DNA from: a virus
Lineage: Duplodnaviria > Heunggongvirae > Uroviricota > Caudoviricetes
Direction: 5' to 3' (one strand)
Length of the DNA stretch: 26,071 nt
IMG/VR virus record: IMGVR_UViG_2909309443_000007
Shown here piece by piece: positions 1,454-19,304 of this stretch. The stretch's first letter is position 1; every line of letters starts with the position of its first letter. The translations under genes and the position numbers were made by a program. The notes under the pieces are model-generated. The model worked only from the letters and a program-made list of their open reading frames with translations. It was not told where the DNA came from and did not search any database.

Positions 1454-2437
1454 ACGGTAAGTCAGGCTTCTGGCGCATTACAGAAAAACCAGAACGGCGC
1501 AGATATTCCAGGAAAAGATACCTTCACCAAAAATATTGGTGCCTGCCGCGCATATAGCTCATGGCTGAATATTGGTGGCGATAGTCAGGTCTGGACAACC
1601 GCGCAATTTATTTCGTGGCTGGAGAGTCAGGGGGCATTTAACCATCCTTACTGGATGTGCAAAGGCTCATGGGCTTATGCAAATAATAAGGTCATTACAG
1701 ATACAGGTTGCGGAAATATTTGTCTTGCAGGTGCTGTGGTGGAAGTTATTGGCACTCGCGGCGCAATGACCATACGCGTTACTACGCCGAGCACGTCCAG
1801 CGGTGGCGGAATTACTAACGCTCAATTCACTTATATTAATCATGGTGATGCTTACGCTCCTGGCTGGCGACGAGACTACAACACGAAAAACCAGCAGCCT
1901 GCATTTGCTTTAGGGCAAACAGGACGCAGGGTCGCAAATGATAAAGCTGTTGGCTGGAACTGGAATAGCGGTGTTTATGATGCAGATATCAGTGGTGCAT
2001 CGACATTAATCCTCCACTTCAATATGAATGCGGGGAGTTGCCCTGCTGTACAGTTCCGCGTGAATTACAGGAACGGCGGTATTTTTTATCGTTCAGCGCG
2101 TGATGGTTATGGCTTTGAAGCTAACTGGTCAGAGTTTTACACCACAACACGCAAACCCTCTGCGGGGGATGTTGGTGCATATACGCAGGCAGAATGTAAC
2201 TCAAGGTTTATTACAGGTATTCGCCTTGGCGGTCTGTCATCTGTTCAGACATGGAAAGGCCCCGGCTGGTCTGACAGGTCAGGTTATGTCGTTACGGGTT
2301 CAGTTAACGGAAACCGTGATGAATTAATTGATACAACTCAGGCAAGGCCAATTCAGTATTGCATTAATGGGACGTGGTATAACGCGGGAGTATTTAACGA
2401 TGATGCACTTAAAAAACATTACTGCTGGCAACCCTAA
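1436..2437 (+). CDS. Silent alternative tail-fibre C-terminal segment (Sv'-like), no start codon of its own
   Basis: Reading frame opens inside site 1 and runs without stops to 2437. Would be fused in frame to the Stf constant part only after inversion. Confidence 0.6.
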   Translation, partial: NLGLQETVSQASGALQKNQNGADIPGKDTFTKNIGACRAYSSWLNIGGDSQVWTTAQFISWLESQGAFNHPYWMCKGSWAYANNKVITDTGCGNICLAGAVVEVIGTRGAMTIRVTTPSTSSGGGITNAQFTYINHGDAYAPGWRRDYNTKNQQPAFALGQTGRRVANDKAVGWNWNSGVYDADISGASTLILHFNMNAGSCPAVQFRVNYRNGGIFYRSARDGYGFEANWSEFYTTTRKPSAGDVGAYTQAECNSRFITGIRLGGLSSVQTWKGPGWSDRSGYVVTGSVNGNRDELIDTTQARPIQYCINGTWYNAGVFNDDALKKHYCWQP

Positions 2438-2933
2438 AACAAAAGAGCAATACCAGCTAACAAAGCAATTTAACATCAAATGGCTTTATTCAGATGATGG
2501 AAAAAACTGGTATGAGGAACAAAAGAATTTCCAGCCAGACACTTTGAAAATGGTCTATGACCATAACGGCGTTATTATTTGTATTGAAAAGGATGTTTCA
2601 GCAATTAATCCAGAGGGTGCAAGCGTCGTTGAATTACCTGATATTACAGCAAATCGCCGGGCTGATATTTCGGGGAAATGGATGTTCAAAGATGGCGTAG
2701 TGATAAAGCGAACTTATACCGAGGAAGAGCAGAGGCAACAAGCGGAAAATGAAAAGCAAAGCCTGTTGCAACTTGTCAGGGATAAAACCCAGCTATGGGA
2801 CTCACAGCTACGGCTGGGCATCATTTCCGACGAGAATAAACAAAAATTAACCGAGTGGATGCTCTATGCGCAGAAAGTCGAATCTACAGACACTTCCGGC
2901 CTGCCAGTAACGTTTCCCGAACAACCAGAATGA
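2400..2933 (+). CDS. tfa: Alternative tail fibre assembly protein (tfa')
   Basis: N-terminus [22 protein letters not shown] is homologous to the minus-strand tfa at 2962..3489; C-terminus diverges. GGAG Shine-Dalgarno upstream. Confidence 0.7.
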   Translation: MMHLKNITAGNPKTKEQYQLTKQFNIKWLYSDDGKNWYEEQKNFQPDTLKMVYDHNGVIICIEKDVSAINPEGASVVELPDITANRRADISGKWMFKDGVVIKRTYTEEEQRQQAENEKQSLLQLVRDKTQLWDSQLRLGIISDENKQKLTEWMLYAQKVESTDTSGLPVTFPEQPE

Positions 2934-2936
2934 GAG

Positions 2937-2964
2937 AAGGCCCGCTATCGGGCCTTAATTTTTA
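2937..2964. terminator. Hairpin between convergent tfa genes, acting as a terminator for the plus-strand tfa'
   Basis: AAGGCCCG-ctat-CGGGCCTT followed by a T-run on the plus strand. Confidence 0.5.
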
Positions 2965-3489
2965 CTCTGGTTTTTGTGGCCATTCAGGATTTGCCGTATC
3001 CACACGGCTGACCAGAACACTGTAGCGTTCCCATGCTTCCAGTCGTGTGCGTTCCTCGTCTGTTGCCATATTCAGCCTGACAGCGCGTTCCAGCGGTTGG
3101 ATGACTGATTCAGCTTCGGAAAGCAATGCGGCCTTTTGTGATTCGGCCTGTTGTTGTTGCTCGTCTGCCGTATAAATCCGTTTAACCACAGCTCCGTCCC
3201 TAAACATCCACTTACCGGAATCATCAGCGCGGCGGTTGGCTGTAATATCTGGAACCTCAACGACGCTATAACCTTCAGGGTTAAGCGTGGAGGCATCTTT
3301 GGTGATGGCGACAATAATATTATTTGCATCGTAAACAATCTTTATTGTGTCTGGCTGAAAGTTTTTCACTTCCTCATACCAGTTTTTACCGTCTTCTGTA
3401 TATAACCAGATAACATCAAAATTCTTTGTTAGCTGATATTGTTCTTTTGTTTTTGGATTTCCAGACTTAATATTTTTTAAATGCTGCAT
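2962..3489 (-). CDS. tfa: Tail fibre assembly protein
   Basis: 175 aa, Mu U/lambda Tfa-like. Immediately downstream of stf on the same strand. Confidence 0.8.
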
Positions 3490-3492
3490 AAA

Positions 3493-6400
3493 TTACACCT
3501 GTACGACGTTATACCATGTGCCATTGATGTATTTTTGTATTGGCCTGAAGATGGCTTCATCATCGCCATCTACTTCACCAATGATTCTTAATCCGGTAAT
3601 TGCGTGTCCGGCTTTTTCATAACGACCACCACGCGCCATCAATTGAACAACACGCGTACCCAGGCGAACATCTTTCACATAGCGGGAATCAAAATTCCCC
3701 CAGTTGCTGGGCTGTATCTGACCGTTAACAGCAAATGTTACTGAGTTATCTGTATTTCGCTGACTATAGAAATGCCAGCCTGAATCATCACCAAGCTCTG
3801 CAACAGTTGGTCTTGATGAAGTGCCCCATAAATTAAACCCTACGTTCTTCGTGGAGTTGTTGGAGCTGGATAGCGAGAATTTTTTACTATCACCTGCCTG
3901 AATGTTTTTAAAAGCAATAGCCACTCCATTCTGAAAGCGGAATACTCGCTGACTATTAGCGTAAACATCAAGAATACCATCACCATTCTGTTTAAATCCG
4001 GTATCATTATCACCAAGAACAATTGAGTTCCCACCCAACGCGTTATTCGTGCCAAGTGCCAGCCCGCCATCAATCCTGGCACCATTACCAACAGACACAA
4101 CTCCTGTTCTTAAGTTGATGTTGAATGGCCTTAATGGCCCAATATCTCCATTTTCACCCTCATTTTCTCGTGTAGGGATGATATGCAGGTGTTCTTCAGA
4201 ACGGCGAAAAATAGCACCAAAGGATGAATTAAAAATCCTCAGTGCATTGACTGTCGATATTTTTACTTCACTGCCGAAAAGGGCTTTAACAAGAACATAC
4301 AAAGCACCCCATTTAAGATTCATCAGGTCTTTTGTTGTGGTGCCATGGCGGCTTCTCCATTTGAAATATTCATTGCCGTTGTCGCCTGTTTCAAACCACA
4401 TGTATGAATCAGTATCGCTGTCGGCATCATTTTTAAATCCAATCTTCGCCCAGTCAGTATTTCTAATCCAGGCAAGGATTGAGTCGTTTGCAAAAGTAAG
4501 CCCACCGGACAAGGTATCGCCATTCTTTTGCACGGCGTTCCTGGCCCTGTTTACCGTTTCCTGTAAACCGAGGTATTCGATAACAGCGGCAACGGTCGAT
4601 TTCGCAAGAATATCCCGCCCGACTTTTGTCAGGGTTGCCAGGCTGGCGACATCATTCCCCGTAAAATACGGAAACCTGTCTGCCGCAGTAGCAAGCCCGG
4701 CCAGCGCCGTCAGGGTGGCATCTTTCGGTTGCTTACCCGCAAGCGCGTTAGTCATGGTGGTCGCAAAATTCGGGTCGTTTCCCAGCGCCGCCGCCAGCTC
4801 GTTCAGCGTATTCAGTGCGTCAGGCGACGAGTCTACAAGTGCGGCAATCGCGGCCATCACATAAGCCGTGCTTGCGATCTGAGTATTATTAGTCCCTTTT
4901 GGCGCAGTTGGCGTTGTTGGCGTTCCGGTCAGCGCAGGACTGTTTAAAGGCGCTTTCTTGTTCGTTTCATCCATTACCGCCTTAACCGCTTTTGGTGTCG
5001 CAGCCAGCGTTTCAGACGGGCTGTTAGTGGCGCTACTGAGCTGAACTATCCCTTTTCGTGCCGTCGTTGCATCCTGAGCGGTATATTTTGCGTTAGCAAG
5101 GTCATATGCTGCCTTTACTGCCTTTGGTGTTGCCGCCAGTGACTCGGAAGTGCTGTTGGTCGCACTGCTGAGCTGAACCACACCTTTTTTCGTCGTGCTC
5201 GCATCTTCCAGAGATACGGCATCAGCAATATCCTCTGCCCGTTTTGCTGCTGTTTCGGCACGCGTTGCCGCGGATTCAGCAGCAACTTTGCTCTGAGATG
5301 CAGCCGTCGCACTGCCTGCCGCCTCTGATGCTTTCGTTGTTGCTGTCGTGGCACTACCTTTCGCTGCTGACGCTTGTCTGGTCGCCTCATCTTTTGAAGC
5401 AGACGCAGATGATGCCGATGACGCCGCTGAACCAGCGGACGATGCGGCTGCCGCCTTAGAGGAAGCAGCATTGTCTGCTGAAGTCTTTGCATTTGTTTCA
5501 GAGGTTTTTGCTGCAGAAGCAGACCTCGCTGCTGCAGTGGCTTGCTTAGTGGCTTCGCCAGCCTTCGTTGTGGCTGTTGAAGCGGATGATGCGGCGCTTT
5601 CTGCCGATTTTCCGGCGGCGGTGGCACTGGCTGAGGCCTGCCCGGCACTTGTTGACGCGGCACTGGCCGACGATGCAGCCGCTGTTTTTGAACCTGCCGC
5701 AGCTGAGGCACTCTGTGCTGCTGCCGTTTCAGAAGACTTAGCGTTTGTCTCAGACGTCTTTGCCGCCTTCGCGGAATTTCCTGCCGCCGTTGCCGAGGAA
5801 GCTGCACTACTGGCACTTGATGATGCATTCGTTTCTGATGATTTCGCTGCCTCTTTTGAGGCCGCCGCCCCCCGTGCCGAGGTGGCAGCTTCTGACGCCT
5901 TCGTGGTCGCTGTGGATGCAGAAGTGGCTGCCGATTTTTGTGATGCTGCGGCATTCGTTTCTGACGTTTTCGCGGCACTGGCGCTGGTAGCTGCCGCGCT
6001 TTTTGATGACTCTGCAGCAGCAGCACTTTTCGCTGCTTCACTGGCCTTTGTCGATGCCGTTCCTGCGCTGGAAGACGCTGACTGAGCCGACGACGCGGCC
6101 TGTCCGGCTGACGTGCTGGCTGCGCGTGCTGAGCCTGCAGCATCAGTCGCATGGGTTGCCGCCTCACGGGCTGATGTGCTGGCATCACTGGCTGACTTCT
6201 TCGCGGCTGCCGTGTTCTGTGCCACTGCGGACGCGTTACGCGCCACCTCTTCCACCATCAGTTCAAAACGGCGCAGTGCCTCCGGACGGGCATCATCCTC
6301 CGTCATGGCACCGAGAAAATCATTCAGCGTACCGGGTCGGGAATCTTCATACACGGTGATGGTCCCGGCATGTGACGGCGGGAATCCGTCCACCAACAGA

Positions 6401-7312: not shown

Positions 7313-9163
7313 TCAGCTAATCGTGATGCCTGTAGTGGCTTTCTTCATCACCACAACCAGCAAATCGCTGATACTTGCTGTGGGATACCAGTTATTTACC
7401 AGCCATGCTGACACCGAAAACTCCAGTGTCATGTGACCGTGACCGGCAGGCATATCAATAACGCCACTGTAAATCAGCGTATTATCCAGCGCGGTACGGT
7501 TATAAATTTCAGCACCGTTTTTCCGCACTATCAGACGGCATGAGGAGTAAATATCAGTATGCTCTCTCTCATGCTTAGCGCCACTGAATGCCACCGCCGG
7601 AATAACAATCTGCCGGTCAAACGGCTGATCGTCATAAACCCTGACGGTAATGGTTCCTGATGGCCACCGCTCCGGTGCACGGGAGTCCCGGGGGAAAGCT
7701 TTGCCCACTGTTTTAACGAGATCGCCTTCAATCTGGTTGGCGGACAGTTTTCCCAGAACCCGACAGTTCTCGTTAATCGTGACGTTGTTGAGCGTCCCGG
7801 AGTTCGCATTCACGTTACCGCTGATATCGGCATTTTTCGCCGTCAGCCGCCCGTCCGGTGTCAGGGAAAATGCCGGAGGATTACCGCCGCTGGTAATGGT
7901 GGGAGCCGTCAGGCGTTTCAGGAACACTTCGTTCATGAATATCTGATCGCCCTGACCAACAAACATCGGCTTTGTGTTGCCATTCGCAGGATTAATCATC
8001 GCAATCCTGTCTGCCGCCAGCAGCACCTGACTCTGCATGCCGTCAGGGGTGTTCTCAATACCGGCACCAATACCCGCGATATAAAGGCGTCCGTCCTGCA
8101 TCTGCTGCAGCTTCACAGCCCACATGCTGTTCAGGTTATTATTTGTATCAACCTGAACCTTCTGTATCTGCTGAATTGCCGCACTCTGGTCTTCCAGTTT
8201 CTTATTGACGGTCTGTGTGATTTCATTGCTGACATCCGTAATGGATGTCCTGATTTCAGCCAGGTCAGGCGCAAGCTGACCGTTATCAATCTGCGTCCAC
8301 AGCTCCTGAGCCAGATGGGTTTTCCCTATCTCGCCTTTGAAAAAATCCAGATAGCCGGATGCGTCATCACTCGGCTGACCAACAGCCTCCACGAATGCCG
8401 ATTTGCCAACGGTGTTCACACTGCGAACGTAAAAATAATAATCATGGCCCGGTTTGATATTGATACTGGCGGCTATCCAGTACAGCGCCGTGCCAAGATA
8501 GCGGGCTGTGGTTTCAACCTGCCTGATATCCGCAATCCGCTTTTCCGAGAACCAGAACTCAAACTGTACCGTCGGATCATAAACGGCAAGATGCGGCGTG
8601 GCGGTTATCTGAAAATAGCCCGGCGTCAGCTCAATCCGCGACGGCGCTGCCGGTGCGGCAATCCGGAACGATACCGACGCCGGATCGCCCTGCTGTCCCC
8701 ATGCATTTACTGCCCGGACTGTCAGCCTGTAGTTCCCCAGAGCCAGTTGTGTGAAGCGGTAAGTGGTTTCCGTCGTCCGGGCCGTGCTGACCAGCCGCTC
8801 ACTGCCGTCATCCGCTGCCACGGTCAGGCGAAGCATAAAGCTCACCCCCTTCACCACCTTCGGCGTGTCCCAGCGGGCCAGCACCTGGTATTCCCCGCTG
8901 TCTGCGGTGACTTCGGCGGTCAGATGCTGCACTGCTGGCGGCGTGACACCATTCACCGTGCCGCTCTGGTTACCGTCAAAGTGCGCCCCGTTATCCACGA
9001 TGGCTTCTTTCTCCGGTACATGCTGCACTGCAGTGATGGCATACGTACCGTCGTCGTTCTCACGGATACTCACACAGCGGAACAGGCGCTGGCGCAGCGT
9101 CGGCAGCTTCAGCCCCCACACGCTGTACTCGGCAACGCCGTCAGGAACCCGACTCACTTTCAC
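7313..9163 (-). pseudogene. J: Host specificity protein J, C-terminal fragment of roughly 615 codons (5' half deleted)
   Basis: C-terminus …[49 protein letters not shown]… matches recalled lambda J. Upstream frame joins an L remnant out of frame. Confidence 0.8.
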
Positions 9164-9164
9164 C

Positions 9165-9239
9165 TTCCCAGAGCACCACGCTGGCCGACTGCTCCGCACG
9201 GGTGCATTCATTCAGTGTTTCCTGCCGGATATCCTGCAT
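9165..9239 (-). pseudogene. L: Tail protein L, N-terminal 25-codon remnant
   Basis: ATG overlapping the M stop (ATGA) encodes [25 protein letters not shown] as recalled for lambda L, then jumps into J. Confidence 0.6.
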
Positions 9240-9568
9240 CAGTTCACCACCTGTTCAAACTCTGCGCTGAACTCAACACGCAGCATACTGACCCGCGACG
9301 ACCATTTTGCGCAGGTCACCTTTATCTGCCGCCACTCATAAGGCGGCGTCCACAGAAAGGCTTTCCAGCCCCCGTGCTCAGCCAGAAACGACTCCAGCGC
9401 CGTGGCCTCCTCACGGGAGACAGACAGCGTCACGCTGTACGTTTTCAGGTCAGCGTTCAGCCCGGCAGGCGCTCGCTGAGAATAGCCATCACCAAAGCGC
9501 ACCTTTCTTACGGAAGGGGCCGAAGCCACATCCATACCGGGTTTCGCTTTCCAGCGGAAGGTCTTCAT
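9239..9568 (-). CDS. M: Tail tip assembly protein M
   Basis: 109 aa, near-identical to recalled lambda gpM (MKTFRWK…EFEQVVN). Confidence 0.85.
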   Translation of the reverse strand: MKTFRWKAKPGMDVASAPSVRKVRFGDGYSQRAPAGLNADLKTYSVTLSVSREEATALESFLAEHGGWKAFLWTPPYEWRQIKVTCAKWSSRVSMLRVEFSAEFEQVVN

Positions 9569-12039
9569 CGTCCACCTCCGGAGAACAGACCACCATCGCG
9601 CATCTGTGCCTGAATTTCATCACGGGCCCCCTTACGGGCCATGTCATACACTGCCTTCATCATCTGTGGACCTGGCAGACCATTCGTACCGTCGTTCTGA
9701 ATCACCACGTGATTGTTCTGATTAAAATTAATGCCTTCCGCCCGCCGCATCTGCGCCGGACTTCCGGCACCGCCCACATAACCACCTTCCGCATAGCCGC
9801 GCATCAGCCGGTAGAGATTTCCCACGCCAATCCGGCTGGTTGCCTCCTTCGTGAAGACAAATTCACCACGGTGAACAATCCCCGCTGGCTCATATTTGCC
9901 GCCAGTTCCCGTAAATCCCCCGGTCGCAAAATGGAATTTTGCCGCAGCAGCCTGAATGGCTGTACCGCCTGACACTGATGCGCCACCACCGGCAGCACCG
10001 CCAATGGCGCTGCCGATACTCCCGACAATTCCCACCATTGCCTGCTTAAGCAGAATTTCTGTCATCATGGACAGCACGGAACGGGTGAAGCTGCGCCAGT
10101 TCTGCTCACTGCCGGTCAGCATCGCCGCCATATTCTGTGCAATACCATCAAAGGTCTGCGTGGCAGCACTTTTAACCTGCGACATACTGTCCGTGGCGCT
10201 CTCTTTCCACTCACTCCAGCCTGACCTGAGGCCTGCCATCCAGCTCCCGCGAAGCTGGTCTTCAGCTGCCCAGGTCTTTTTCTGCTCTGACATGACGTTA
10301 TTCAGCGCCAGAGGATTATCGCCATACTGTTCCTTCAGGCGCTGTTCCGTGGCTTCCCTCGCTGCCTGCCGGTCAGTCAGCCCCCGGTTTTTCGCATCAA
10401 TGGCGGCCCGTTTTGCCCGTTGCTGCTGTGCGAATTTATCCGCCTGCTGTGCCAGCGCGTTCAGGTGTTCCTGATAGGTGACCTTGTCGCCAAGTGCAGC
10501 CAGCTGGCGTTTGTACTCCAGCGTCTCATCTTTATGCGCCAGCAGGGATTTCTCCTGTGCAGACAGCTGGCGACGTTGCGCCGCCTCCTCCAGTACCGCG
10601 AACTGACTCTCCGCCTTCCACAAATCCCGGCGCTGCTGGCTGATTTTTTCATTCGCTCCACTATGCTGCTCAAGCATTTTTAGTTCAGCTTGTAACGCAA
10701 GAAGAGCTGCATGTGCTCGATCTTCCTGACGCTCTCCCGCAGCGGACTGCTTCGGCTTTTTCAGCGTCGCTTCATAGTCCTTTTTCGCCGCCGCCATCAG
10801 CGTGTTGTAATCTGCCTGCAGGATTTTCCCGTCTTTCAGTGCCTTGTTCAGTTCTTCCTGACGAGCGGTATATTTCTCCAGCGGCGTCTGCAGGCGTTCG
10901 TAAGCCTTCTGCGCCTCTTCGGTATATTTCAGCCGTGATGCCTCAGACTCGGCCCAGTCCTTTGCTGCCATCTCTCTGGCCTTTTCAAGATCGGCCTGCA
11001 ACGTGGCGGCTGAAAGCCCAAGTTGCGCATTCGCTCTGTCCTCCCATGCTCCCCGGAGATTGGCAAGAAATGCTGAGGTTTTACCGCGCCGGTGGCTCCG
11101 GCTCTGATACCACTGCCATTTTTTGTCCGCCTCATCAAAAGCCTTTTCTGCTTTCTCCAGCATTCCCTGGGCAGTGTCCGGGCGACCAATATCCAGCACC
11201 GCATCCCACATGGATTTGAATGCCCGTGCTGTCCTGTCTGCCCAGGTCTCCAGCGTGCCCATGTTCTCTTTCAGGCGGAGGGTCTGGTCATCAAACCCTT
11301 TCGTTGCGGCCTCGTTCGCCGCCTGCAATGCCCCGGCTTCATCTCCGGAACGCTGCAACTGAGCAACATACGCAATCTGCTCCGCCGTCACGTTATGGAA
11401 CTGACGTGCCATCGCTGTCAGTCCCGACGTCGGGTCTGTGGTCAGCTTCCCGAAGGCTTCAGCGACCTTGTCCACCTCCACGCCGGATGCAGAGGAGAAA
11501 CGCGCCACACTCTGGCTGATCGCCTCAAACTGCTCACCACCACGCACACCGGCATTCACCAGCGCCGTCAGTGACTCGCTGGTCTGGTTAAACGTCAGCC
11601 CTGCCGCCTGCCCGGCTCTGGACAGGACCAGCATACGATCTGCCGTCAGTCCCGCCTGATTGCCGGAAAGGACCAGCGTTTTGTTGAAATCGGACAGGGT
11701 TGAGTTGCCCTGATACCAGGCATACGCCAGCGCACCGGTCGCCACCGCCAGCGAGGTGGCCCCCACCATCGGCAGGGTGATCGCACCGGCAAGCCCCCTG
11801 AACATGGGGATCATCCCGCCGAAGGAGTCCTTCACCTGACCACCCTGTTGCAGCAGGATCAGCCACGGACTTTGCCCGCCTGCAAGCTGCGTGGCCACGT
11901 CAGTGAACTGTGCAGGCAGCATACGCATGGCGGCTTTATACTGTCCGACGGAAATGGCCATTGCGGCGGCACCGGGCACCGCCGTTCTGCTGATACGGCT
12001 GAGGTTTTCAACGGCCTGCTCAAGACCTTTTATGGCCAT
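9565..12039 (-). CDS. H: Tail tape measure protein H with its N-terminus replaced by the first 29 codons of Z (in-frame Z'-'H fusion)
   Basis: MAIKGLEQAVENLSRISRTAVPGAAAMAI matches recalled gpZ N-terminus; from SVGQYKAAMRMLPAQFTD… it matches recalled gpH to the C-terminus. 824 aa, shorter than lambda H. Confidence 0.75.
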   Translation of the reverse strand: MAIKGLEQAVENLSRISRTAVPGAAAMAISVGQYKAAMRMLPAQFTDVATQLAGGQSPWLILLQQGGQVKDSFGGMIPMFRGLAGAITLPMVGATSLAVATGALAYAWYQGNSTLSDFNKTLVLSGNQAGLTADRMLVLSRAGQAAGLTFNQTSESLTALVNAGVRGGEQFEAISQSVARFSSASGVEVDKVAEAFGKLTTDPTSGLTAMARQFHNVTAEQIAYVAQLQRSGDEAGALQAANEAATKGFDDQTLRLKENMGTLETWADRTARAFKSMWDAVLDIGRPDTAQGMLEKAEKAFDEADKKWQWYQSRSHRRGKTSAFLANLRGAWEDRANAQLGLSAATLQADLEKAREMAAKDWAESEASRLKYTEEAQKAYERLQTPLEKYTARQEELNKALKDGKILQADYNTLMAAAKKDYEATLKKPKQSAAGERQEDRAHAALLALQAELKMLEQHSGANEKISQQRRDLWKAESQFAVLEEAAQRRQLSAQEKSLLAHKDETLEYKRQLAALGDKVTYQEHLNALAQQADKFAQQQRAKRAAIDAKNRGLTDRQAAREATEQRLKEQYGDNPLALNNVMSEQKKTWAAEDQLRGSWMAGLRSGWSEWKESATDSMSQVKSAATQTFDGIAQNMAAMLTGSEQNWRSFTRSVLSMMTEILLKQAMVGIVGSIGSAIGGAAGGGASVSGGTAIQAAAAKFHFATGGFTGTGGKYEPAGIVHRGEFVFTKEATSRIGVGNLYRLMRGYAEGGYVGGAGSPAQMRRAEGINFNQNNHVVIQNDGTNGLPGPQMMKAVYDMARKGARDEIQAQMRDGGLFSGGGR

Positions 12040-12050
12040 ACATCCCCCTT

Positions 12051-12306
12051 TCAGCGGCGACGGTTAACGGCAGGCGGTACGCCCCGCCCAAGCCAGAGAT
12101 GACAGCTTCCGCCATCATCCGGCGAAATCCGGTCTATCCAGAAGTTTTCCTCACCGATGGTCAGCGTGTCGCCGCGCCGCAGCTGCCGCACATCATCAGT
12201 CCGGACAAACAGGGACGGGCTGGAGCCTTCAACGCGCACGCCCTGTCCGGCATAGCTGATATTTTCAGGGTCATCAAAAACACCACGTATCACAGCACCG
12301 GACTGC

Positions 12307-12336
<30 letters not shown>
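12051..12336 (-). pseudogene. Head-tail joining protein FII, C-terminal fragment
   Basis: MGTSATMTSGEQSGAVIRGVFDDPENISYAGQGVRVEG…PPAVNRRR matches recalled lambda FII from about codon 23. Joined directly to the truncated portal frame. Confidence 0.7.
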
Positions 12337-14177
<1,841 letters not shown>

Positions 14178-14424: not shown

Positions 14425-14501
14425 TGGCGCGTTGTACTGGATTCGAACCAGTGACCGATTGCTTAGAAGGCAATTGCTCTGTCCGGCTGAGCTAACAACG
14501 C
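14425..14501 (-). tRNA. tRNA-Arg (anticodon UCU)
   Basis: Hand-folded cloverleaf: acceptor GCGTTGT/ACAACGC, anticodon loop CTTCTAA, T-arm GGTTCGAATCC, discriminator G plus CCA. Confidence 0.85.
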
Positions 14502-14598: not shown

Positions 14599-14674
14599 TG
14601 GTGGCCCTTGCTGGATTTGAACCAGCGACCTGGCGATTATGAGTCGCTCGCTCTCACCACTGAGCTAAAGGGCC
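14599..14674 (-). tRNA. tRNA-Ile2-like (anticodon CAU; Met not excluded)
   Basis: Hand-folded cloverleaf: acceptor GGCCCTT/AAGGGCC, anticodon loop CTCATAA, T-arm GGTTCAAATCC, CCA end. Closely resembles recalled E. coli ileX. Confidence 0.8.
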
Positions 14675-14723: not shown

Positions 14724-15773
14724 TCAAACGATTAAATCCTGAACTTCCCTGACTGTCTGTTCAAAACGTCCTGTCTCCAGCTCAACACCAATCGCACAAC
14801 GCCCCAGTGCCATCGCCGCTTTTACCGTTGAACCTGAACCCATAAAAAAATCTGCAACCAGGTCTCCCGGACGACTGCTCGCGTTGATTATCTGCTGCAG
14901 CATTTCTGCCGGTTTTTCGCACGGATGTTTTCCTGGATAGTACTGCACCGGTTTATGCGTCCAGACATCGGTGTACGGAACCTGCGCCGTCACACCGAAA
15001 TACCGCCGCAAATTTTTATATTCACTCAGCAGTTCCGTGTACTGCCGGTTCAGCTCACTGTATGTGCTGACCAGCTGGTGGTGTGGCTTTTCCAGTTCCC
15101 CGCGCTGATGTTTTTCTGCCGCAACACGCGCAAACAACGCCTGCAATTTGTTGTAATCACCCTCGTTCGGTAACTGCCACTGACTGGTACCAAACCAGTG
15201 CGAAGCCATGTTTTTCTTTCCGGTGGCTTCCGCTATCTGTTTTGACGTTATTCCCAGTGATTTACGCGCATCACGAAAGTAAGAAATCAGCGGGGCCATG
15301 ACGTGCTGTTTTAGCTCGCGCCCCTGTGCCACATAGCCATCATCTTTCGGGCGATACGGTCCCTGATAATGTTCTGCAAACAGAATGCGCTCTGTTGCCG
15401 GAAAATACGCCCGCAGACTTTCCTTATTGCACCCGTTCCAGCGTCCGGACGGCTTCGCCCAGATAATGTGGTTCAGCACATTAAAGCGCTCACGCATCAT
15501 GATTTCGGTGTCAGATGCCAGGCGATGACCACAGAACAGGTAAAGACTTCCGGTAGGCTTCAGTACCCGCCAGAACTGCGCCAGACACTGGTCCAGCCAT
15601 TTCAGGTAATCATCGTCGCCCTCCCACTGGTTATCCCAGCCCTCGGGCTTCACTTTAAAGTATGGCGGGTCTGTGACTATCAGATCGACAGAATTTTCCG
15701 GTAAGGTCTGGATAAACTCCAGGCAATCAGCGTTGATTAACTCACAACTGGATATTTTTACAGTATTAATCAT
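14724..15773 (-). CDS. DNA amino-methyltransferase (N6-adenine or N4-cytosine), orphan
   Basis: DPPY motif (…LIVTDPPYF) near the N-terminus and an FxGSGST AdoMet-binding motif near the C-terminus. No restriction endonuclease partner nearby. Confidence 0.8.
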   Translation of the reverse strand: MINTVKISSCELINADCLEFIQTLPENSVDLIVTDPPYFKVKPEGWDNQWEGDDDYLKWLDQCLAQFWRVLKPTGSLYLFCGHRLASDTEIMMRERFNVLNHIIWAKPSGRWNGCNKESLRAYFPATERILFAEHYQGPYRPKDDGYVAQGRELKQHVMAPLISYFRDARKSLGITSKQIAEATGKKNMASHWFGTSQWQLPNEGDYNKLQALFARVAAEKHQRGELEKPHHQLVSTYSELNRQYTELLSEYKNLRRYFGVTAQVPYTDVWTHKPVQYYPGKHPCEKPAEMLQQIINASSRPGDLVADFFMGSGSTVKAAMALGRCAIGVELETGRFEQTVREVQDLIV

Positions 15774-18921: not shown

Positions 18922-19304
18922 AGCCTGCTTCTCCTTGCCTTTCGGCACGTAAGAGGCTAACCTAGATTTGCCGTTCATAGATTGAGCCTCAGATTAATGT
19001 TAAACGTCTTGCAGGACGCGTAACGTTAACTGGGGCTTTTCTCTATCTGCCTTTTGGTGGCATGCCTGAGACAGATAACCTCAAGCACCCGCAGTAATTT
19101 TACATAAAGGTTATGGTTCCTTTCAATAACTCAACAATTTCCCATCTAAATACTACTCATATAGTCATATAGGCTGGCGATAATTTAAAGATAAGACTCT
19201 CTCTTTTTCTCCACCACATAATGCATTACCAACGCAAAAGTTACCATGGTAATTATATCTTAACGAAAAATACCCCGCGAACATATTCTACTCAACAAAA
19301 AATT

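Follow-up and report, generated by a model that had tools for sequence, protein, structure and literature searches.

The late region of a lambdoid prophage carries an open reading frame (ORF) of 824 amino acids that begins as gpZ and continues as gpH. A reading made from the sequence alone (hereafter the sequence-only reading) had attributed this chimera to a deletion between genes Z and H, and had considered its preserved reading frame to be unusual for a decay deletion. The question raised by this locus is therefore whether the chimeric gene is a scar of prophage decay, a natural gene of another type of tail module, or a product kept for a use of its own. In the current work, the window denotes the whole analyzed stretch of 26,071 nucleotides (IMG/VR record IMGVR_UViG_2909309443_000007), to which all positions refer; all features and joints described below are located on its minus strand. 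Here the segment between 6.5 and 14 kb constitutes the late region of a lambda-like prophage, with the order gpW-like 63-aa ORF, truncated portal gene, FII 3' fragment, 824-aa ORF, M, L stub, C-terminal piece of J, lom and tail-fibre genes.

The chimeric ORF (9565-12039) consists of Z codons 1-29 followed by H codons 61-855. This tape-measure fusion opens with MAIKGLEQAVENLSR..., and its N-terminus, MAIKGLEQAVENLSRISRTAVPGAAAMAI, corresponds to residues 1-29 of lambda gpZ with 28 of 29 residues being identical (K18R is the sole change), while from residue 30 onward the protein follows lambda gpH from Ser61 (SVGQYKAAMRM), with 86% identity over a BLAST alignment that covers gpH 48-853. Both halves of the protein were thus correctly recognized by the sequence-only reading. 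The BLAST alignment to gpH begins at fusion residue 16 (gpH 48), owing to a weak local similarity between fusion residues 16-29 and H residues 47-60. At the DNA level, similarity to lambda runs up to lambda coordinate 8063 (in Z), which in the window abuts coordinate 10719 onward (in H). The Pfam profile Minor_tail_Z (PF06763) is matched at positions 1-34 of 190 only (25.0 bits versus a cut-off of 23.9), a full-length Minor_tail_Z domain being absent. TMP_2 (PF06791) is near-complete (1.4e-69, profile positions 3-207 of 208) and is accompanied by Tape_meas_lam_C (PF09718; 5.2e-21), the combination that characterizes a lambda-type gpH. The native N-terminus of gpH (H residues 1-60) is missing and is replaced by the 29 Z residues.

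The chimera retains the ribosome-binding site and start codon of Z, the former (AAGGGGGATGT) being located in the native FII-Z spacer (12040-12050). It had been proposed that a native overlap between the FII stop and the Z start is preserved just upstream. The junction is indeed native, but the FII stop (12051-12053) and the Z start (12037-12039) are separated by 11 nt rather than overlapping, as in lambda, where FII ends at 7965 and Z starts at 7977; moreover, only the 3' end of FII is native, its 5' end having been deleted.

To define the breakpoints, phage Perceval and lambda were considered as references; these are suited to establishing gene identity, but at 90-96% identity they are too divergent for this purpose and were replaced by Escherichia coli ATCC 43896, found among the best half-matches to a 201-bp query spanning the junction. 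This strain harbors an undeleted prophage at the same potB/potC site with the normal order FII-Z-U-V-G-T-H-M-L-K-I-J, in which integrase and excisionase genes adjoin potC. It shares the M and Lom proteins with the window by accession, and all blocks that the window retains match it with 99.93-100% identity. The window itself corresponds to CP024266.1, a complete E. coli chromosome, with 100% identity over the 22,039 bp covered by locus L011, on which the contig of the window reaches potB, and the prophage lies integrated between potB and potC, in line with a defective prophage; a literature search on accession CP024266 returned nothing relevant. The host lineage is E. coli, and probably ETEC as judged from strain names and sources.

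When the Z-H region was aligned to this parent, the 824-aa protein proved to be identical to Z[1-29]+H[61-855] as encoded by the ATCC 43896 prophage. The upstream flank (window 12340-11953) equals parent FII+65 to Z+87 over 388 bp at 100% identity, and the downstream flank (window 11955-9165) equals parent H+178 to L+75 over 2,791 bp, likewise at 100%, giving no substitution in 3,179 bp. The alignments of both flanks share the bases ATT, of which one copy is retained, and there are no inserted bases. This joint (J3, 11953-11955) lies 3-5 nt from the position near 11950 that had been proposed for it, within the interval originally singled out, and the ATT encodes Ile29 in Z as well as Ile60 in H. 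The flanks are collinear with a single parent and free of filler, as a microhomology-mediated deletion requires. The 2,658 bp missing at J3 (886 codons) comprise the 3' 85% of Z, the genes U, V, G and T in their entirety, and codons 1-60 of H, which confirms the postulated origin of the fusion by deletion. Lambda has no sheath; U encodes the tail terminator, V the tube protein, and G and T encode chaperones. The suggestion that tube and 'sheath-chaperone' genes are gone consequently holds for U, V, G and T, whereas the word sheath does not apply to a lambda-like tail. The parental sites show 15 matches in the 31 nt that end with the joint, compared with a mean of 8.1 for random in-register pairs of Z and H positions (P=0.008), which places the crossover within a short stretch where similarity is higher than average.

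Considering that lambdoid prophages are repeated within E. coli genomes, a mis-join of such segments during assembly could generate an artificial joint of this kind. Genomes matching the junction query mostly do so at two or more places (median 2, up to 10), and several matching prophage segments are a classic source of mis-assembly. The two sides of J3, however, share only 3 bp, far below the overlap used by any assembler, and exactly this joint is present in seven complete genomes as well as in numerous independent assemblies from NCBI, ENA and Logan; an assembly artefact is accordingly most improbable.

An equally improbable origin would be the natural arrangement of another tail module, i.e. 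an intact type of phage whose tape measure protein possesses a Z-like N-terminus. The mosaic nature of lambdoid phages would allow for it, and the weak resemblance of residues 16-29 to H 47-60, through which BLAST extends H alignments back to residue 16, lends it some appearance of support. Nevertheless, none of 50,697 phage records spans J3 at the DNA level, and a search of the phage proteins of the same 50,697 records with the first 75 residues as query retrieved none in which residues 1-15 are contiguous with H; matches that seemed to reach at least 80% coverage all begin at residue 16 and represent ordinary H genes. U, V, G or T were found elsewhere at none of the loci carrying the fusion, within the sequence covered per locus, and the flanks are 100% identical to a parent with the normal Z-U-V-G-T-H order. 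Intact relatives with this N-terminus on H and with U, V, G and T encoded elsewhere, which the sequence-only reading had named as the observation that would speak against a deletion, are consequently absent from both the 50,697 phage records and the related loci, as far as the sequence of the latter is covered.

J3 is one of four joints in the late region of the window, each of which could be mapped to the base because an undeleted sister prophage occupies the same site. At the upstream end, J1 (~13884) joins holin to W in frame with 7,541 bp missing relative to ATCC 43896 and a microhomology of 1 bp exact (3 of 4 positions matching); the lysis genes, Nu1, A (bearing IS66 in ATCC 43896) and the 5' end of W have been lost. 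The product is a holin'-'W chimera of 63 aa (13749-13940), which is annotated by PGAP as an intact head-tail joining protein. J2 (12339-12340) joins portal gene B to FII out of frame at a 2-bp microhomology (AC), with a loss of 3,425 bp that comprises the 3' end of B, C, D, E, FI and the 5' end of FII. The truncated portal gene, a 481-aa ORF (12307-13752), passes out of frame into FII and then stops, while FII persists as a 3' fragment of 289 nt (12051-12338, FII+65 onward), of which the listed 95-aa ORF begins at an internal ATG just after J2. Downstream of the fusion, M (9239-9568, 109 aa) is intact, its protein accession being identical to that of ATCC 43896 M, and is followed by J4 (9165-9167), where L is joined to J out of frame at GAA (3 bp). 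J4 lacks 3,629 bp, corresponding to most of L, the whole of K and I, and the 5' 1,625 nt of J, and leaves the C-terminal part of the tip attachment protein as a 'J fragment (7313-9164). The tail-assembly module is thereby reduced to a nonfunctional set, with U, V, G, T, K and I absent, Z, L and J fragmentary and M alone intact. In total, genes required for particle production (the lysis genes, Nu1, A, C, D, E, FI, U, V, G, T, K and I) have been deleted, which marks this element as a defective prophage.

In order to establish the sequence of these lesions, ten contigs with the exact 824-aa protein were mapped onto the ATCC 43896 parent, by which three architectures were distinguished. Type A (the window, L011-L013 and L016) contains J1, J2, J3 and J4, and L008 represents the same type with an additional 1,006-bp deletion in the portal gene. 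Type B (L009, L010 and L014) combines J3 with a deletion from holin+347 to the region preceding E (10,660 bp missing, microhomology TGT) and with another from J+2138 to stf+195 (2,278 bp missing, CGGATT), FII, L, K and I being intact. Type C (L015 and L017) combines J3 with a deletion of 14,809 bp that begins past the replication gene and ends within A (CA), and here W, B, C, D, E, FI, FII, L, K and I have been preserved intact. The sole lesion common to the three types, which have otherwise decayed independently, is J3, which is therefore the oldest lesion; as an identical 3-bp joint is very unlikely to recur, it represents the founding deletion.

The same comparison bears on the notion that the four deletions of the window stem from one catastrophic event, for example an abortive induction with fragmentation and re-joining. 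Four joints within 5 kb, together with almost no point divergence from the parent, are what such an event would leave behind. Types B and C, however, carry J3 without J1, J2 and J4, which already contradicts a common event as far as J3 is concerned, and the extra portal deletion of L008 and an extra H-stf deletion in strain E54 point to stepwise accumulation, so that a single event appears very unlikely. The later deletions of types A, B and C, although independent, have in common that the lysis genes, Nu1 and the 5' part of A were lost. By our rough estimate, such an overlap has a chance of 0.1-0.15, which is statistically not strong and no more than suggestive of selection against a prophage that would be tail-less but still lytic.

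The distribution of J3 is narrow, with the whole 201-bp query being matched in six of 5,426 RefSeq complete E. coli genomes, namely those of strains E8, E54, E1316, E1648, E1654 and E1739 (E8 and E54 are recorded from Bangladesh, the latter from diarrhoeal stool). These six strains also carry J1 and J2, and four of them carry J4, this joint being absent from E1316. In E54, a later deletion of 4,678 bp with microhomology AAG has eliminated the 22 C-terminal codons of the fusion together with M, the L'/'J joint, lom and the 5' end of stf; the fusion is now an ORF of 805 aa, which the resulting H/stf joint terminates within two codons. By exact-protein look-up, the 824-aa protein is present on at least 24 contigs of independent assemblies, a number that, as the look-up returns only exact intact copies, is no measure of how often the fusion is damaged.

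As regards the mechanism, the 3-bp ATT of J3 has by itself little weight, considering that a microhomology of at least 3 bp has a probability of approximately 0.05 per joint under random joining; the argument therefore rests on the set of nine mapped joints (four in the window and five in relatives). Their exact microhomologies are 1, 2, 3, 3, 2, 3, 6, 2 and 3 bp, with a mean of 2.8 bp versus approximately 0.67 bp expected at random. The overlaps of 4, 7, 9 and 11 bp that BLAST reports for some joints contain mismatches, and the values of 1-6 bp given here derive from an exact recount. Filler DNA, IS ends or att-like sites were found at none of the nine joints.

Taken together, the Z'-'H gene is best explained as a scar left when an integrated lambdoid prophage underwent one spontaneous deletion, i.e. 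as ordinary microhomology-mediated decay, an interpretation to which we attribute a probability of roughly 0.9. Illegitimate recombination would have paired the ATT of Z Ile29 with the ATT of H Ile60, presumably by a RecA-independent process acting at short homologies, be it replication slippage or end-joining at the 3-bp match. The 2,658 bp between the paired codons were thereby lost, generating one open frame that is provided with the Z ribosome-binding site and start, and loss of the tail terminator, tube and chaperone genes left the prophage unable to build tails. Since a phage without tube genes would be unable to spread alone, both the origin and the fixation of the deletion most likely date from the prophage state. 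Following this first lesion, three sublineages separately lost the lysis and terminase region by different deletions, and the sublineage of the window further lost B-FII and L-J. According to this reconstruction, the fusion protein is expected to have no function. In the PGAP/RefSeq annotation the scar is in fact already flagged, as both halves of the gene are annotated as partial pseudogenes.

The preserved reading frame does not call for a further explanation. The starts of Z and H are 2,565 bp (855 codons) apart in the parent, and the fusion is in frame because these two genes share a reading frame and the deletion is a multiple of three. Six gene-gene joints could be counted (J1, J2, J3, J4, the portal deletion of L008 and the type B J/stf joint), two of which, holin'/'W and Z'/'H, are in frame. 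This equals the chance rate of one third, and the assertion that an in-frame fusion is unusual for a decay deletion was not sustained. Similarly, the 824-aa ORF is still open because the deletion is recent, as indicated by the absence of substitutions from its flanks, and probably not because of selection.

It could still be argued that the in-frame protein is kept as being useful to the host, for instance as a dominant-negative tape measure that poisons the tails of superinfecting or co-resident lambdoid phages. The fusion possesses the Z ribosome-binding site and start, a near-complete TMP_2 and the C-terminal lambda tape-measure domain, apart from H' and M no late gene is retained complete in all three architectures, and the multiple matching places in most matching E. 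coli genomes indicate that partner phages would exist. The retention pattern is, however, biased by a look-up that returns intact copies only, and with this ascertainment bias and a chance that we roughly estimate at ~0.1, retention of H' and M was dropped as evidence for selection. Among the six RefSeq complete genomes, which form an unbiased set, E54 has lost the end of the fusion as well as M, and E1316 is without L'/'J. Furthermore, the in-frame rate among the joints equals chance, and the joint is confined to a narrow lineage. With zero substitutions since the event, a signal of purifying selection is impossible, and the sequence speaks neither for nor against selection on the ORF. A benefit to the host thus seems very unlikely. 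A more specific version, to which we give slightly less credence still, is that the chimera is produced from late transcription and may act as a decoy hindering tail assembly by other lambdoid phages in the cell; this would account for the survival of the fusion in three independently decaying sublineages.

The prophages of the window lineage and of ATCC 43896 are approximately 99.96% identical, whereas identity of the neighboring chromosome from potB to roxA is only 98.8% (44 mismatches in 3,641 bp), and the prophage therefore entered both backgrounds after their divergence. This arrival, by infection or recombination, took place shortly before J3 arose.

In-frame deletions in lambda H were reportedly constructed in the laboratory by Katsura and Hendrix in the 1980s, with the H N-terminus and the partner genes being kept and shorter tails being formed. 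The fusion resembles these mutants in having a shortened in-frame tape-measure ORF with the C-terminal domain, but it differs from them in that its N-terminus consists of 29 Z residues and in that it lacks the genes for tube, terminator and chaperones as partners, which means that the locus cannot make tails. A closer parallel is provided by the cryptic lambdoid prophages of E. coli that have decayed by internal deletions, such as Rac, Qin, DLP12 and the defective Sp/CP-933 elements of O157:H7. As in these, there is a chromosomal att site, a lambda-like gene order and a series of internal deletions that have eliminated morphogenesis, packaging and lysis genes but spared tail-fibre, lom, hokD, dicB and methyltransferase genes; unlike these, the window prophage is much younger, its retained blocks being 99.9-100% identical to an undeleted relative. 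The deletions themselves are similar to those formed by RecA-independent illegitimate recombination or slippage in E. coli, with precise internal loss, retention of one copy of a 1-6 bp repeat and no insert, and show no feature that sets them apart. The pattern of loss and retention is also in agreement with a survey of incomplete prophages, in which replication, packaging and release genes are preferentially lost and tail-fibre genes are enriched (PMC7744054).

In itself, the Z'-'H fusion is of little importance, since it represents textbook prophage decay, and has a modest value as a particularly clean example. Where a deletion is very recent, a long intact chimeric prophage ORF is no evidence of function, and the deletion sets of the relatives reveal the order of decay, in which tail genes were lost first and the lysis and terminase region disappeared later, on three independent occasions.

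Over the regions compared (28100-32201 of L001 and 1-8700 of L004, a locus of E. coli ATCC 43896), the prophage of the window's lineage and its sister prophage in ATCC 43896 are about 99.96% identical, and the flanking potB-pepT-roxA chromosome is just 98.8% identical between the same lineages, a difference implying, as judged from sequence identity, that the common ancestor of the prophages is younger than that of the backbone. The otherwise undeleted ATCC 43896 prophage is itself probably defective, because an IS66-family element (ISCro1) is located inside its terminase gene A (L005, a second ATCC 43896 locus, 1955-4570). The corresponding site of insertion in A has been deleted in every derivative carrying the Z'/'H deletion, and consequently the insertion may be either older or younger than the Z'/'H deletion.

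The prophage also contains a tail-fibre segment of 3.1 kb, flanked by inverted repeats of 33 nt that are 94% complementary (1428-1460 and 4551-4583 of the window). The orientation of this segment in the window is opposite to that in strain E8, another carrier of the Z'/'H joint, and is variable among further close relatives too. Since the adjoining recombinase gene is a mere remnant of 64-72 aa, the segment is presumably flipped by a different invertase acting in trans.

Two tRNA genes of the prophage are located on the minus strand (14425-14501 and 14599-14674), downstream of a DNA methyltransferase gene (14724-15773). One of these specifies tRNA-Arg(TCT), while the other, with anticodon CAT, is assigned to Met by ARAGORN and to Ile by the RefSeq annotation (PGAP). 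Elsewhere, the intergenic region that separates the DUF6731 gene from hokD differs in length by 24 bp between the window (~19066-19089) and strain E54, also a carrier of the joint.

At the holin'/'W deletion joint, the minus strand of the window (13749-13940) encodes an in-frame chimera of 63 aa composed of the first ~19 holin residues and the C-terminal 44 residues of gpW. PGAP treats this chimera as intact and names it 'phage head-tail joining protein' (WP_001393479.1). The type A relative L008 (GCA_012388275.1) carries an extra out-of-frame deletion of 1,006 bp inside the already truncated portal gene (9499-9507 of L008), which shows that decay of the prophage is still under way. Furthermore, three sublineages with the common Z'/'H joint, represented by the window, by L009/L010/L014 and by L015/L017, carry deletions of 7.5, 10.7 and 14.8 kb that arose independently, and each of these has taken out the lysis genes together with Nu1 and the 5' part of the terminase gene A. 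Killing functions may have been lost convergently in these sublineages, subsequent to the loss of the tail genes.
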